From assembly GCA_034226945.1 (NCBI GenBank), contig CP120457.1, positions 1,054,001-1,118,000 of the forward strand: a stretch of 64,000 nucleotides of DNA, in the 5' to 3' direction. Numbering within the stretch: position 1 is the first letter of the stretch; each line of letters begins with the position of its first letter. A program made the position numbers and the translations under genes. This document shows, piece by piece, positions 46,348 through 51,949 of the stretch. The stretch comes from Picochlorum sp. SENEW3 (Eukaryota). The notes beneath the pieces were generated by a model. That model was not told where the DNA came from and did not search any database. It was given only the letters and a program-made list of their open reading frames with translations.

Positions 46348-47872
46348 ATGTTCTTCGGAGGAGGTTTTCCTGGAGGGCATCCGTTTGGAGGGATGCCAGG
46401 CGGAGGAGGCCCTGTAAACAATTCAAAGTATTACGAGATTTTGGGCGTCAGCAAAGATGCAACAGCCCATGAAATCAAAAAAGCGCACAGGAAACTGGCT
46501 CTGAAGTACCATCCTGACAAAGGTGGGTCGAGGCACGATTGAACAACATGCCGATTTGAAACGCCGTTGGTTGCCGTCTGGGGTTCGGGGACGTTATTTC
46601 TACTGATTTTGTTTAATATTGGGTCATTAATGGAGATTGAATGGATCCATTGGCTACGCGGAGCAACCAAGAAGGAATCTTGTGGATTGCTTCTGGAATG
46701 TTTTGACCGAGGAGCCGACAAACTAACCAGTGTATGTGCATTTCATCGCAGGAGGGGATCAGGAAAAGTTCAAGGAGATTAATGAGGCATATGAAGTCCT
46801 TCGAGATGAGGAGAAGCGCGAAATTTACGACAAATATGGAGAGGAAGCTGTGAAAGACGGTTCTGGTATGGGTGGAGGAGCAGGCGGAGCTGACATTTTC
46901 GACCTGTTCGGTATGGGTGGTATGGGCCGCCGCAGCCAAAGAGAGAGAAAGAGCGAAGACGTCGTGCATCGCCTGAAAGTATCGTTGGAAGATATGTACA
47001 AAGGATCAACCAGGAAGCTTCAAAGCACCCGCAACATCAAATGTCCCGAATGTAATGCCACTGGCAGTAAGAGCGGGAAGAAATATCGATGCGATACCTG
47101 CCAAGGCAGTGGAATGGAGGTCAAGATGCGACAAATCGGGCCAGGGATGGTGCAGCAAATCCAGCAGCGGTGCTCTTCGTGCTCTGGTGCCGGATTCTCT
47201 TGTCCTCCGTCAGACAGATGCAGCAGATGCAATGGAAAGTGTCTGGTTGCCGACAAAAAGATATTTGAGGTTCACGTGGAAAGGGGCGCACGGCATAATT
47301 CAAAGGTTGTGTTCAGAGATGAAGCAGGGACTGATTCCCCAGATGTCCTACCAGGTGATTTGATATTTGTGTTGGAGCAGAAACCAAACGACTCCTTCAA
47401 GAGAATTGGAAACGATTTGTTCATGGAGAAATCTGTGAGTCTCGTGGAATCCCTGACCGGGTGCACCATGCACATCACTCAGCTTGATGGAAGGATTCTG
47501 GAGATGAAGACACCAGTTGGACACGTGATCACTCCAGACTCTTGGACATGCATCAAAAATGAAGGAATGCCAATCCAAGGACATCCATTTGATAAAGGCA
47601 ACTTGTACATTCACTTTACTGTCGAGTTTCCGGAGAAGATTACCGAGGAGCAGAGCAATGCCTTGAGAACAATCTTTGGCGCACCACAGTCCAATGGCAC
47701 ATCGCCCATGAATGAGGAGGACATCGAGGAGGTTGCCATGGTAACAGTGGCGGATATAGAAGAGGAAATCAAGAGGCGCAAGCAGTACGAAAGGACGTCG
47801 GGAGCTTACAACAGTGATAGTGATGATGACATGGGTGACAGACCACGAGGCGTGTCATGTGCTCAGCAGTAA
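46348..47872 (+). CDS. Type I DnaJ (DNAJA/ATJ2-like); intron 46523-46751
   Basis: HPD, G/F region, CxxCxGxG repeats, CaaX box CAQQ. Confidence 0.96.
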
Positions 47873-47955
47873 AAGCTACAGTATATTTTGCGATGTATTC
47901 TTTTCATTTTCTTTAATACTATCACATTGGTTTCCCTGCAGCATATGTGCTGTAG

Positions 47956-48181
47956 CCCACCCTATGCCGCTATGAACTATGGTTTGTACACTAGGGTACA
48001 AATGTCGGGTTCGTTCTTAGGTACAAAATAGTCAGTCCTCCTAGAGACCTGGTCAACATGTTTTCGTTGTCGAGCAACTCCCAAACCGTCACAACCAACT
48101 ACGCGACGTTTGGTCAAGTCTCCCACCAGGTAACCCAAGTCATGAGTATTCTTTCCCTCTCCGCACTAGCGTGGGTGCGGT
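47956..48181 (-). ncRNA. Putative Fanzor omega-RNA scaffold (right end); guide would extend into the flank 47955-~47936
   Basis: Stems CCGCAC/GTGCGG (48161-48180), GAGACTTG/CAGGTCTC (48115-48122 with 48044-48051) enclosing CCAAAC/GTTTGG, and TTTGTAC/GTACAAA (47983-48002), directly 3' of the Fanzor stop. Confidence 0.6.
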
Positions 48182-49397
48182 CTACCAGCAAATGCTGGCG
48201 GATGTTTCCTTCAAAAATTTGAGGAAGATGTTGAACGCTGCGAGGATGTCTCGATCAGCGTGAAAACAGCACGACTTGCATGCGAAGACCTTACTACCTC
48301 CTAATGTCTCGTGTAAAATACCACATCTACAGCACGTTTTTGTCGTATACTCTTCCCCAATAACGAACACATTTTCCCCCATCCTTTCTGCTGTTTGAAT
48401 CAATATCTCCCTAAACTTGGAATGATCATTGGTCATGACCGAGGCATATCATGTGACGGACGCTTTTGGTTCTCAAACGCCTATCAACACGTTTCGACAT
48501 ACTCTTCGACCCGAATTTTGGAATGACGATATTGTCATACATGGAACAGAGATAGTGTGCTGCTTTAAAGTGGAAATCCTTCAGAATGGACTGAAACCTT
48601 CCTGTCAAACGCTCAAACGCCATTTTCTTTCGCTTGCGTTTCCTATGGTCAGGTTCAGTATCTATACTCGACCGGAGTTTATCCAGGGCAACAAGCCTCG
48701 GGTATAACTTTGTTGCAAACCCTAGACCAAGTTCTGAGGTGCCTTCTGGAGACCATATAGACCCGAATGTTCTGACACCTGGGTCGATAGCACAGTAATT
48801 GGATATGGTCATTACCTTCTCCTCCCTTGGGACATGTACTGGAATGGCCAAGTAAAACTTGCCTTTTGTCTTCATCAACCTACAATCGTGATGTACAGGT
48901 ATCTCGATACTTTGACGCACTCTCAATACACCTTGGAGACTTCTCTTGTATATATGGACTCCTTGATGGTCAATACGGAGACCCGACGGACCTTTCTGAA
49001 TGAGAATAGATTGGTCACTGTCAGACTTCTTACGGAAACCCATTCGAAACCGTTCGATGTTCTTCCTTTTCCTGTTTGTGAGAGCAGCCTTGTATGCTCC
49101 TTGAAAATCCTTGATTGCTCCTTCTCTGATGTGCTTCGGTGTTGAAAGAAGCCACACCTTGCTACCTTGGATGTTCTTGTTAGTGACAAATCTGTTCCGT
49201 AGCCATTGAAACCAGTTCTTCTTCGTCGGAATGGTTCCTAGATTGTTTAAGAAACCCACACATTCGTTATATGTATATCGACAGGCGCCGAACCATTGAT
49301 TAAGCACTCTTTCCTGCAGGACCAGCTGGTCTTTTGTTGGGAATATTTCAATCCGACGAATTCTTGTTAGCCCGTCTTTTGTACTTTCTCCGACCAT
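48182..49397 (-). pseudogene. Fanzor2 / IS607 TnpB RNA-guided endonuclease, frameshifted by a 13-bp insertion at 48426-48438 (frame open upstream to ATG 49892)
   Basis: RIEIFPT..Q..LNQWFGACRYTYN, RuvC-I AIDPG, Fanzor-type IVIPKF, relocated catalytic E in GEEYTTKTC, Zn ribbon CCRC..CKSC, RuvC-III DRDILAAFNI. Confidence 0.92.
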
Positions 49398-49899
49398 AAA
49401 TTTTTTAACTGAAGACCGTGACAATTGAAATGATATCATCGACGAGTTCTTCTTCTCTTGATTTATGTTTGTCGTTAGAATCGCAGACGATCCTAACTCC
49501 TTTTCGTGCCAACATGAATTCGATGATATCGAACCCGAACCGAGCAAGTCGGTCCTTGTGAGCGACCGCAACAAACGAGACGCCTCCTTGCAGCGATCGT
49601 TGAAGAATGGATCGAAGGCCTTTTCGGTTCCAATTGAGTCCGCTTCCGATATCGGTGACGACCTCCCAACCAGGCATATACCGGACCTGTCGCTCAAGGT
49701 CATCTTTTTGCCCGCTCGATGATACTCTACAGTAACAGATTTGCGCTTGTTGCTTACCATCTTGAACCTCAATCCCATAATGCCTTTGTCCACTTGGCTG
49801 CACGACATATTTGATGCGGTCATTGTTCGCCCATTTGACAATGGTCTGACCAGAGACTCCGAAATGCTCGGCTGCTTTTTATCGCGACACATACTGCAT
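49348..49899 (-). pseudogene. tnpA: IS607 TnpA (MerR-like HTH + serine recombinase) with in-frame TAA at 49881-49879 and 49407-49405
   Basis: MQYVSR*KAAEHFGVSGQTIVKWAN, YCRVSS..QKDDLERQ, DIGSGLN..RKGL, AHKDRLARFGF, ELVDDIISIVTVFS*KIYGRRK. Confidence 0.92.
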
Positions 49900-50032
49900 A
49901 TTAATGATACATTATTTATGACTGATTAGCGCAATCATGTACTCTTATATAGAGTTATTCACAATTAAGTCAACTGCTGAAGCCCAATACTGAGAGAAGC
50001 TCTCATCAGTTCAAGTTAAATCTGCAGTCTAC

Positions 50033-50121
50033 TCTGGTCTGTATTTTGATTTTTTTAAAGTCATATTTTTAGTCGTATTTCAGTATACTGTGGCTGTGAG
50101 AAGTTAGAAATACAGACCAGA
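50033..50121. repeat. Perfect 14-bp inverted repeat enclosing 61 bp (MITE-like remnant?)
   Basis: TCTGGTCTGTATTT (50033-50046) and AAATACAGACCAGA (50108-50121). Confidence 0.65.
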
Positions 50122-50233: not shown

Positions 50234-51949
50234 ATGGCAGAACAGTCAGCAGCCTGCCACTGCACATGTTGCAGAAAAAATTCTCGTTCTTCTTTGGAGT
50301 TGAGGGAGCTGCACGCCAGGACATTATCGGAGATGAGGGGCTCCATCAGCAGCCTTACCACAAAGTACAAGTCGACGCTAGAGGCGATGGAAACACTTAA
50401 AAGGGAATCGGAGGAGAACAGAAGGCTAGGTGCCATGGCAGCCAATTCTGCTCAGATACACTGTGATGAGATTAAGAATGGCTTGCAGGCAATGTCTCTC
50501 GATGCAAACGAGTTGGTTCAGATTCTTTCGACTGAACTGAGCTCGGTGAAGGAAGAAAGGGATAAATTGAGGAGAAACCAAGACGTGCTATGCAGTAAAC
50601 TGTCCAGTATGTCCCAACCTGGTGTGGAGGAGAGAGCCGTTCTGGTTGGGGAAATTCAGGATCTAACGCGGTCTCGAGAAACTCTTCAAGTTTTGATAAG
50701 TAATTTGAGGACCAAGTGCTCAGACCTGGAGGCCACGGTTGCTTCGCTCCAGGATGAAAATGCGCGCCTGTTGCAGCGGGAACCCACAGATGCTCCTGCA
50801 GTGGATGGATTGAGGACCAAGTGCTCAGACCTGGAGGCCACGGTTGCTTCGCTCCAGGATGAAAATGCGCGCCTGTTGCAGCGGGAACCCACAGATGCTC
50901 CTGCAGTGGATGATTTGAGGACCAAGTGCTCAGACCTGGAGGCCACGGTTGCTTCGCTCCAGGATGAAAATGCGCGCCTGTTGCAGCGGGAACCCACAGA
51001 TGCTCCTGCAGTGGATGATTTGAGGACCAAGTGCTCAGACCTGGAGGCCACGGTTGCTTCGCTCCAGGATGAAAATGCGCGCCTGTTGCAGCGGGAACCC
51101 ACAGATGCTCCTGCAGTGGATGGATTGAGGACCAAGTGCTCAGACCTGGAGGCCACGGTTGCTTCCCTCCAGGATGAAAATGCGCGCCTGTTGCAGCGGG
51201 AACCCACAGATGCTCCTGCAGTGGATGGATTGAGGACCAAGTGCTCAGACCTGGAGGCCACGGTTGCTTCCCTCCAGGATGAAAATGCGCGCCTGTTGCA
51301 GCGGGAACCCACAGATGCTCCTGCAGTGGATGGATTGAGGACCAAGTGCTCAGACCTGGAGGCCACGGTTGCTTCGCTCCAGGATGAAAATGCGCGCCTG
51401 TTGCAGCGGGAACCCACAGATGCTCCTGCAGTGGATGATTTGAGGACCAAGTGCTCAGACCTGGAGGCCACGGTTGCTTCGCTCCAGGATGAAAATGCGC
51501 GCCTGTTGCAGCGGGAACCCACAGATGCTCCTGCAGTGGATGATTTGAGGACCAAGTGCTCAGACCTGGAGGCCACGGTTGCTTCGCTCCAGGATGAAAA
51601 TGCGCACCTGCTGAAGGCTCAAAGCAAGTCGCACCCTTCATCAGTTGAGAAGCTTCTCCGGCTCACAAGGGAGAATCAACACTTTGCAGTGAAGTTATCA
51701 GAGCAGGAGAACAAATCAAAGGCATTAGAATCAACAATTATGCTCCTGAATAAGTATCTTGACAGAGAGATCAATACTGGAGGAGTAGAAAATAGCTTGA
51801 TTGATATTTTGGATGACATTTCTTACATAAAGAGAACAACGAATTCACGTGAGGCCAAGGAGCTCATAGGAATGACTGAGAAAGGTTTGGAGAGAATCAA
51901 CGAACCTAGATTTCATGATTCCGGTCATCCAGTACTCCCCCAAACATGA
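50234..51949 (+). CDS. Coiled-coil protein containing a 35-aa tandem repeat
   Basis: 571-aa ORF; LRTKCSDLEATVASLQDENARLLQREPTDAPAVD[G/D] repeated. Confidence 0.8.
   Translation: MAEQSAACHCTCCRKNSRSSLELRELHARTLSEMRGSISSLTTKYKSTLEAMETLKRESEENRRLGAMAANSAQIHCDEIKNGLQAMSLDANELVQILSTELSSVKEERDKLRRNQDVLCSKLSSMSQPGVEERAVLVGEIQDLTRSRETLQVLISNLRTKCSDLEATVASLQDENARLLQREPTDAPAVDGLRTKCSDLEATVASLQDENARLLQREPTDAPAVDDLRTKCSDLEATVASLQDENARLLQREPTDAPAVDDLRTKCSDLEATVASLQDENARLLQREPTDAPAVDGLRTKCSDLEATVASLQDENARLLQREPTDAPAVDGLRTKCSDLEATVASLQDENARLLQREPTDAPAVDGLRTKCSDLEATVASLQDENARLLQREPTDAPAVDDLRTKCSDLEATVASLQDENARLLQREPTDAPAVDDLRTKCSDLEATVASLQDENAHLLKAQSKSHPSSVEKLLRLTRENQHFAVKLSEQENKSKALESTIMLLNKYLDREINTGGVENSLIDILDDISYIKRTTNSREAKELIGMTEKGLERINEPRFHDSGHPVLPQT
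50705..51610 (+). repeat. 105-bp minisatellite, 8 full units plus 1 partial, near identical
   Basis: Units start at 50705, 50810, ... 51545; the full units differ only at GGA/GAT and TCG/TCC. Confidence 0.97.

Follow-up and report, generated by a model that had tools for sequence, protein, structure and literature searches.

The element and its two genes

The window analysed here is the whole stretch of 64,000 nucleotides from contig CP120457.1 of Picochlorum sp. SENEW3, and the subject of this work is a single 2.0-kb IS607-type element on its minus strand, running from about 49985 to 47978, with no second copy within the window. The element carries tnpA, the gene of the serine recombinase TnpA, and a gene of the Fanzor2 family, which together with its bacterial forerunners is studied as a source of compact genome editors and as the link from TnpB to the RNA-guided nucleases of eukaryotes. 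This eukaryotic IS607-type transposon, present as one copy that is dead, lies in the nuclear genome of the Picochlorum alga. From the comparison of this copy with its relatives, it appears that in the lineage as a whole the 5' part of the Fanzor2 gene contains all of tnpA, the two frames being offset by one base, and that about 165-200 codons encode two proteins, an arrangement that the lack of second-frame stops and the reduced synonymous change in tnpA indicate to be kept by selection.

In the window, the features of which are collected in Table 1, the tnpA frame reads MQYVSR*KAAEHFGVS... and ends in the TGA at 49350-49348. Its catalytic CYCRVSS motif aligns with the intact TnpA of 20 loci and there is a weak Pfam match to HTH_17, and the make-up of an IS607 TnpA, an N-terminal helix-turn-helix (HTH) and a resolvase catalytic domain, is thus present, though the gene is nonsense-mutated and has suffered a deletion. 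A first-pass annotation had placed the tnpA ATG at 49899 and a second ATG 7 nt away at 49892, opening a +1 frame that stays open for 165 codons into the Fanzor core; this is confirmed on the minus strand, and the +1 peptide that it quoted is present as written. The +1 frame is stop-free from 49925 (the previous stop is the TAA at 49928) to the TGA at 48428-48426, with 165 of the 488 codons of the Fanzor frame preceding the core ATG at 49397 and with the TnpB/Fanzor core beginning at residue ~176. The +2 frame over the same tnpA has 11 stops.

The top Protein Data Bank (PDB) match of the window frame is 9b0l (ApmFz2 L79), with E 3.6e-14 across residues 179-480. The RuvC-I motif D-P-G, a signature of the Fanzor2/pro-Fanzor clade (Yoon et al. 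2023, PMC10711439), is present in AIDPGVRTF, aligned to the IDPG of ApmFz2, where the D324A mutant in this motif is reported to be dead (PMC10530073). The other reported signature of the clade, a RuvC-II catalytic Glu relocated to about six residues before the zinc finger (PMC13565253), is also found, the Glu just before the zinc finger (EEYTTKTCCRCG) aligning by profile with E467 of ApmFz2, but it stands behind a frameshift. The zinc ribbon and the final RuvC Asp (C-x2-C ... C-x2-C ... RD) are present as CCRCG...CKSCCFHADRD. The gene is not intact, as that of an active nuclease would be, the Fanzor frame being broken by a 13-nt insertion near 48421-48433 that the first-pass annotation had overlooked. 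A public protein model, P0001 (526 aa, source name Picochlorum sp. SENEW3), has 100% identity over 89% of the core query, and its first 165 residues match the window extension at 100%.

Table 1. Features of the IS607-type element, in coordinates of the window
Feature	Coordinates	Strand	Basis or remark
Whole decayed IS607-type element	47978..49985	-	Homologous to intact relatives L005, L002, L003; blastn 74% identity over ~2.0 kb, window 49978/49985 to 47978
TATA-like box TATATAAG, in the conserved left end (TATATGAG/TATATGAT in relatives)	49944..49951	-	~45 nt upstream of the tnpA ATG
Twin start codons ATGCAGTATG: tnpA ATG 49899-49897 and Fanzor-frame ATG 49892-49890	49890..49899	-	Read from the sequence
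tnpA pseudogene, IS607-type serine recombinase (HTH and resolvase domain), 184 codons including stop	49348..49899	-	Pfam Resolvase PF00239, E 2.5e-16, stops as X
Fanzor extension, 165 codons in the +1 frame of tnpA	49398..49892	-	Zero Pfam families; aligns with the extensions of 19 homologs
Fanzor2 frame to the premature TGA, 488 codons: extension and WED/REC/RuvC-I core	48426..49892	-	Pfam OrfB_IS605, HTH_OrfB_IS605
Frame-shifted C-terminal Fanzor2 piece, last 84 residues: EEYTTKTCCRCG, zinc ribbon, ADRD	48182..48436	-	Pfam Cas12f1-like_TNB, E 9.8e-17
Conserved non-coding right end, likely guide (omega) RNA scaffold (putative function)	47978..48181	-	In alignment A3, conserved above the level of the coding sequence
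First in-frame TAA of tnpA, codon 7	49879..49881	-	Relatives TCA or TCC/AGC (Ser); missense Gln to Lys in the Fanzor frame
Second in-frame TAA of tnpA, codon 165	49405..49407	-	Relatives TCA or TCG; missense in the Fanzor frame
12-nt deletion junction in tnpA	49674..49675	-	Loses four TnpA residues (R-x-K-Y/F); leaves both reading frames intact
12-nt in-frame insertion in the Fanzor core (placement approximate)	49318..49329	-	Versus L005, L002, L003
13-nt frameshifting Fanzor insertion (placement approximate)	48421..48433	-	Relatives read ...CLGHAKFRE...

Two open frames in the relatives

A search with the Fanzor core found 67 homologous proteins, 37 of which are 520-641 aa long, about 170-200 residues above the TnpB core, so that the extended Fanzor of ~560 aa that had been proposed is the normal form in the relatives, the extension being present in 20 of the 20 long sequences chosen. 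In all sequences of the alignment (the window and 19 long homologs) the N-terminal extensions align with the +1 peptide of the window, with Pro95, Phe96, Ser105 and Leu108 invariant, and the likeness to other Fanzor N-termini that had been suggested is thus real for the clade of the window. The +1 peptide alone, searched against 1.84 billion representatives, gave 16 matches (unscanned for family membership), 10 of them at least 500 aa long and aligned near the N-terminus and the other 6 of 166-411 aa.

At the DNA level 21 related loci, 1 viral and 20 metagenomic, were compared; L011 is truncated at the 5' end, L008 is without the region and L007 is broken near the Fanzor 3' end. In all 20 loci that have the region, tnpA has an open frame and the Fanzor frame runs through it without a stop, even at 29-36% Fanzor identity. 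Inside the Fanzor open reading frame (ORF), the +1 frame of tnpA has zero stops in 21 of 21 sequences, while the +2 frame has 3-15. Together with the constrained synonymous sites described next, this upholds the claim that Fanzor2 is overprinted on tnpA.

The third positions of tnpA are the second positions of the Fanzor frame. Among L002, L003 and L005 the tnpA third positions differ by 0.31-0.32, versus 0.53-0.55 in the non-overlapped Fanzor core, and at shared four-fold sites the overlap has an identity of 0.446 (n=1795) and the Fanzor core one of 0.316 (n=2359), with the overlap ahead in 43 of 45 pairs. Counted in the manner of OLGenie over 10 pairs, dNN/dNS came to 0.59 (confidence interval 0.47-0.72) in the +1 frame and to 1.39 in the +2 frame. 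The control, the non-coding +1 frame of the non-overlapped Fanzor core, gave 0.88 (0.77-0.99), and therefore a part, not all, of the departure from 1 is method bias. The signal of second-frame constraint is concentrated in the 3' two-thirds of the overlap. Two of the marks by which a functional dual-coding pair is recognized, namely that both frames are open across lineages beyond chance and that there is purifying selection on the second frame beyond that on the first, are both found.

With regard to chance, shuffling the codons of the window's tnpA 20,000 times leaves the +1 frame open in 4.4% of cases, 20,000 synonymous shuffles leave it open in 16.4%, and therefore the window alone is not beyond chance. 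The earlier chance estimate of about 4e-4 was right in its arithmetic; its null model, with equal codon frequencies, does not stand against these shuffles. For the relatives, 2,000 shuffles per locus gave probabilities of an open frame, P(open), of 0-0.14 by codon shuffle and 0-0.22 by synonymous shuffle. Over 17 lineages including the window, separated at <85% nucleotide identity and having 45-84% nucleotide identity between them, the product of P(open) is 1.4e-29 (synonymous) and 3.4e-37 (codon), and the p value by Fisher's method is 1.3e-13 (synonymous) and 1.2e-19 (codon); the stop depletion against shuffled controls that had been put forward as a check is thus borne out in the relatives. 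As the negative control, 10 TnpA relatives that lack the long frame were used, and their +1 frame contains 6-38 stops. When the part that begins at the CYCRVSS codons is taken alone, P(open) multiplies to 5.6e-20, with a four-fold identity of 0.491.

A separate observation concerns L002 and L005, where the differences by codon position are 0.02/0.03/0.13 in the Fanzor cores and 0.15/0.09/0.23 in the tnpA/extension parts. Near-identical cores beside divergent tnpA/extension parts suggest recombination between elements near the end of tnpA.

The twin start codons

Among 20 sequences complete at the 5' end, the nearest Fanzor-frame ATG lies at +4 relative to the tnpA ATG in 12 and at +7 in 4, the latter being the window, L003, L004 and L005, while in 2 others it lies at +10 or +16. 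The second ATG arises where a Tyr, Asp or Asn codon has T as its last base and G comes next, and there NAT rather than NAC is used in 12 of 13 lineages, versus 168 of 442 (0.38) elsewhere in the same genes (binomial P 7.7e-5). With +4 or +7 in 16 of 20 sequences and with this choice of codon, the adjacent AUGs pointed out in the window are conserved.

It is noted that the use of both of two such AUGs has been reported for p69/p206 of turnip yellow mosaic virus (TYMV), 7 nt apart, for NB/NA of influenza B, 4 nt apart, and for p26/p27 in pea enation mosaic virus 2 (PEMV2), 16 nt apart, one proposed mechanism being that ribosomes oscillate over ~15 nt (PMC6294492). By analogy, leaky scanning at the twin AUGs is plausible here. 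In the eukaryote/virus clade one capped mRNA would yield both TnpA and Fanzor because the AUGs are 4-7 nt apart, a spacing used in TYMV and influenza B; we thus infer that both proteins are translated from the twin AUGs.

What the extension encodes

For the intact L005 protein (566 aa), an AlphaFold model from a 49-sequence alignment has a mean predicted local distance difference test score (pLDDT) of 70.4, with pLDDT <50 at residues 1-97, a helix at 104-121 over the conserved motif, PFF/PFW-x2-C-x-E-x-S, short strands at 134-161 and a confident core from ~180. Based on this model, residues 1-97 of the extension are predicted to be disordered and residues 98-177 to be structured. In the VIA-align comparison of the model, 9b0l comes first (Z 24.1, root-mean-square deviation 7.4, 420 residues aligned), with model residues 98-562 set against chain residues 53-518, and the chains of TnpB (8h1j) and Cas12f align to the model solely from residue ~178. 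In ApmFz2, residues 1-53 are described as a disordered nuclear localization signal (NLS) region and residues 53-130 as an N-terminal domain made of RuvC-R and thumb (PMC11832414). Residues 98-177 of the extension thus lie in the range aligned to the N-terminal domain of ApmFz2, and the modelled ranges fit an equivalent domain.

Within the part modelled as disordered, a K/R cluster lies just upstream of an S-[VA]-T-[VA]-E motif in most sequences of the eukaryote clade; that it acts as an NLS is a guess by analogy with ApmFz2 (PMC10530073). The cluster as a eukaryote-specific mark was dropped as evidence, the difference from prokaryotes being modest. By itself stands the observation that two giant-virus Fanzors, at L157:768-2408 (-) and L163:3-1121 (-), are divergent from tnpA with no overlap and begin ...NWFDKCVKL... 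and ...EWFCNELTKK..., respectively. By eye their WF-x2-C N-termini recall PFF/PFW-x2-C, which is a lead and not a result, since hhalign left this part unaligned.

The overlap in prokaryotes

A TnpA profile identified 432 relatives among 457 pattern matches in prokaryotic genomes, and the best 80 of the 432 were analysed, which are mostly from cyanobacteria and also from Poribacteria, Dehalococcoidia and others. At 63 of these 80 loci there is a +1 ORF of at least 450 codons, and for 33 of the 63 the opening of the frame lies at +61 and the first ATG between +67 and +76. At 58 of the 80 the ORF of at least 450 codons opens at most 150 nt from the start of the tnpA ORF and runs into TnpB; therefore the overlap predates the transfer into eukaryotes. 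The motif PFW/PYW-x2-C-x-E-x-S occurs in the prokaryotic long-frame loci too. In a viral set, 44 of 80 loci have the CYCRVSS pattern (the 36 without it were left out), and the long frame is present in 30 of the 44 and absent in 14. As read from these sequences, the dual coding is old, being present in prokaryotic IS607 elements and inherited by the giant-virus and algal elements, and the eukaryote/virus clade differs from the prokaryotes in the position of the first ATG, which is possibly a eukaryotic adaptation.

One locus deserves a separate remark. The closest TnpA of the "prokaryotic" set (61%) is that of L022, on a contig labelled as a Patescibacteria metagenome-assembled genome; its +1 frame shares the N-terminus of P0013, a 625-aa protein from the eukaryote/virus clade, and the 10.6-kb contig may be mis-binned.

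Comparison with known systems

The nearest known protein is ApmFz2 (also ApmFNuc), the L79 protein of Acanthamoeba polyphaga mimivirus (9b0l), coded in an IS607 element; it is the best match both from the single sequence (E 3.6e-14) and from the profile (1.8e-55), as well as by structure (Z 24.1). It shares with the present family the DPG motif, a Glu shortly ahead of the zinc finger, the association with an IS607 TnpA and, going by the published descriptions, a disordered N-terminal NLS region followed by a structured N-terminal domain (PMC11832414, PMC10530073). By contrast, the sequence likeness is confined to the core, and the window copy is broken. In the literature searched there is no description of the ApmFz2 N-terminus overlapping tnpA.

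The pro-Fanzors, TnpBs of cyanobacterial IS607 elements that have DPG together with the alternative Glu, have been proposed as the source of Fanzor2 (Yoon et al., NAR 2023, PMC10711439). The prokaryotic loci fetched here are likewise mostly cyanobacterial, with a CYCRVSS TnpA, a long TnpB frame over tnpA and the same N-terminal motif, and they match the published description as far as clade and layout go, the match being made by these and not by RuvC signatures locus by locus. Unlike the eukaryote/virus clade, where the distance is 4-7 nt, the cyanobacterial loci usually have their first in-frame ATG ~67-76 nt inside tnpA. In the main text of Yoon 2023 (PMC10711439) the words overlap, extension, N-terminal and NTD are absent. 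More generally, in the literature on Fanzor, pro-Fanzor and IS607 that was searched, supplements and most subscription journals aside (Bao and Jurka 2013, Jiang 2023, the Yoon 2023 preprint and NAR paper, Schargel 2024, Saito 2023, a 2023 IS607 IStron preprint and a 2026 review), no statement that tnpA lies inside Fanzor was found.

With TYMV, influenza B and PEMV2 as described in the source cited above, the lineage shares long overlapping frames that start 4-16 nt apart, the spacings here being +4, +7, +10 and +16. Unlike those RNA-virus genes, for which dual initiation is experimentally proven, this is a DNA transposon, known from sequence alone. Ordinary IS607 loci have the same two gene families and a CYCRVSS-type TnpA, arranged in tandem in L111, L156, L167, L170 and L176 and divergently in L157 and L163; unlike the lineage of the window, they have 6-38 stops in the +1 frame of tnpA, and their nuclease is without a tnpA-encoded extension.

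Fate and surroundings of the window copy

The lesions of the window copy (Table 1) were called against the intact relatives L005, L002 and L003, and the two TAA lesions that had been claimed for tnpA were found, at codons 7 and 165. With two nonsense codons and a 12-nt deletion in tnpA, and with Fanzor put out of frame by its 13-nt insertion, this copy is unlikely to yield any product, and since the insertion disables Fanzor too, the whole element is dead, a fossil. It had also been supposed that a frame remaining open beside two TAA lesions signals selection in this copy. This fails, since Fanzor itself is frameshifted by 13 nt; the open +1 frame of the window is a relic with no sign of selection in this copy.

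Contigs of four further sequencing runs, probably of DNA, have the same locus with the same lesions wherever covered. Those of X1 and X2 show no gap at the 13-nt insertion, and in the contigs of two runs no indels or other letters are seen at the lesion sites covered. The contigs of X4 break at window 48256-48257 and 49599 and continue into unlike sequence; these loose ends may be assembly-graph branches or partial copies elsewhere in the genome. The public model P0001 joins ...YLCSM to EILIQ..., omitting ~40 conserved residues around the 13-nt insertion, which looks like an invented intron that bridges the frameshift. A real intron there was rejected, as it would delete IPKFGSK...TKTVRHM...H.KFR, conserved in all relatives. 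A non-standard code with TAA as a sense codon was rejected as well: the neighbouring DnaJ gene ends in TAA, so that the host uses TAA as stop, and the relatives carry Ser codons at both sites.

The IS607 family is described as being without terminal inverted repeats and without target-site duplication (Bao and Jurka 2013), and the ends of the element were set by homology to the relatives alone. The TATA-like box in the left end may act as promoter. At the right end, the ~200 nt after the Fanzor stop are conserved, with a consensus fold of 51 pairs, 4 of them compensatory, drawn from just 4 sequences; a scan of 47850-50100 against Rfam matched zero families at E up to 1. This end is a candidate guide (omega) RNA scaffold. 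In the same conserved 3' non-coding region, L003 has ~84 extra bases (L003:2540-2630, A3 columns 1895-1978), which repeat the adjoining GACCATTCGTCAC...GACGGTTTGGGAGTCG stretch and resemble a tandem duplication within the putative scaffold.

On one side of the element a DnaJ gene ends, and on the other a repeat-rich coiled-coil gene begins. The DnaJ-type gene, window 46348-47872 (+), shows an apparent intron split (exon end near 46542, next ORF from 46868). The neighbouring ORF at 50234-51949 (+), 571 aa, contains about nine tandem copies of a 34-residue unit (LRTKCSDLEATVASLQDENARLLQREPTDAPAVD[GD]), and across these repeats the opposite strand is open for 389 codons too.

Discussion

Taken as a whole, the data are most probably explained as follows: the window holds a dead copy of an element in which tnpA is coded inside Fanzor2, the dual coding is ancient, came from prokaryotes and is kept by selection in the lineage, and translation would start at the twin AUGs. 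That the N-terminal domain of Fanzor2 was born inside tnpA is plausible and, if so, its birth took place in bacterial ancestors. Going further, we propose, with belief and doubt near to balance and doubt slightly ahead, that the N-terminal domain (the RuvC-R helix and the DNA-clasping thumb) and the nuclear-import tail of Fanzor2 were born de novo in the +1 frame of tnpA of bacterial IS607 ancestors, and that the start later migrated to 4-7 nt from the transposase AUG in eukaryotes and giant viruses, where a single capped mRNA would make both proteins by dual initiation.

Several observations weigh against parts of the main explanation. The lineages share ancestry, and therefore the products of probabilities overstate their independence. 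In the overlap before the CYCRVSS codons the product of P(open) is 1.1e-4, the Fisher p is 0.98 and the four-fold identity is 0.361, and in the 5' third of the extension the synonymous-shuffle P(open) is 0.11-0.95 per lineage, indicating little constraint; for the 5' part, with Fisher's method giving p 0.98, no stop depletion is claimed beyond the joint product. The Fanzor ATG stands 5 nt before the tnpA ATG in 2 of the 20 sequences, from two lineages, and close spacings (+4, +7, +13) also occur in some bacterial loci, and therefore close AUGs are not confined to the elements of eukaryotes. Of the structural match, the end points of the aligned range alone are known, and the confidence of the model at residues 120-180 is middling. 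The first-pass annotation had suggested aligning the +1 peptide to solved Fanzor2 structures; phmmer and profile comparison gave no likeness of the extension to the N-terminal domain of ApmFz2, the core alone being aligned, and hhalign, run with the family profile on the Fanzor of L157, a free-standing one from a giant virus, also aligned the core alone (columns 266-575). Finally, the basic cluster is modestly enriched, the mean maximum of K/R in 8 residues being 3.9 versus 2.9.

Because the 5' third is weakly constrained, the true Fanzor start could be an internal Met of a real overlap, either residue 24, about the equivalent of the cyanobacterial ATG at +76, or residue 44, before the basic cluster, with the first ~25-45 codons open by chance. 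The prokaryotic frames, which usually open at +61 with a first ATG at +67 to +76, are in line with such a start, as is the Met before NKRK, which is conserved in the subclade of the window and was chosen by gene callers for P0004. However, the frame is open up to the twin AUG in all 16 5'-complete lineages (the above product of 1.1e-4), codon choice preserves the adjoining ATG in 12 of 13 lineages, and a ribosome scanning past the tnpA AUG would encounter the twin AUG first. An internal start is thus unlikely, though it fares best among the alternatives to the start at the twin AUG.

It was also proposed in the first-pass annotation that the overlap replaced bacterial translational coupling, as a eukaryotic innovation in which the Fanzor2 N-terminal domain arose de novo in eukaryotic elements. 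Twin AUGs at +4/+7 do dominate the eukaryote/virus clade, while the first in-frame ATG of prokaryotes usually lies near +70. The proposal is inconsistent with the 58 of 80 prokaryotic loci in which the TnpB frame is already open over tnpA, with the PFW/PYW-C-E-S motif; the part concerning the origin is contradicted, and the proposal as a whole is very improbable.

Insertion sequences commonly make frameshift fusions, OrfAB of the IS3 and IS1 families among them, and the two frames here are on the same strand and one base apart, so that a TnpA-Fanzor fusion made by programmed ribosomal frameshifting might be considered. Such a fusion requires the second frame to be open downstream of the shift site alone; here, by contrast, it is open from the start of tnpA and has a conserved ATG of its own, and a complete ATG-initiated ORF is called in 37 of the 67 homologs, which makes the fusion scarcely credible. 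Last, to the idea that the +1 frame is open merely through codon composition and that Fanzor starts at the core ATG 49397, in an ordinary short tnpA-tnpB overlap, we give almost no credence: the shuffles of the window alone agree with it and the ordinary layout exists, the Fanzor core beginning at the end of tnpA in L111, L156, L167, L170 and L176, but it is contradicted for the lineage by relatives that are not near-clonal (45-84% identity) and have zero stops in 21 of 21 sequences versus 6-38 in the controls, with constrained four-fold sites, dNN/dNS below that of the control and a conserved extension peptide.

With the dual coding of tnpA and Fanzor2 preferred over these alternatives, its meaning for the family can be stated as follows. 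If tnpA lies inside the nuclease gene, the N-terminal domain that separates Fanzor2 from TnpB has a traceable origin by overprinting, and a domain that was first coded within a different gene would be present in tnpA-free Fanzor2 genes, mimivirus L79 for example. It would be a rare, long (~170-200 codons) and ancient case of overprinting, common to bacteria, viruses and eukaryotes. The co-conservation of TnpA and Fanzor would then be partly that of shared nucleotides and would need re-reading, and a conserved part of the protein would be missing from annotations or constructs in which Fanzor or pro-Fanzor begins at the core Met. Moreover, the lineage would allow a test of the way in which a bacterial element with two genes manages under cap-dependent translation.

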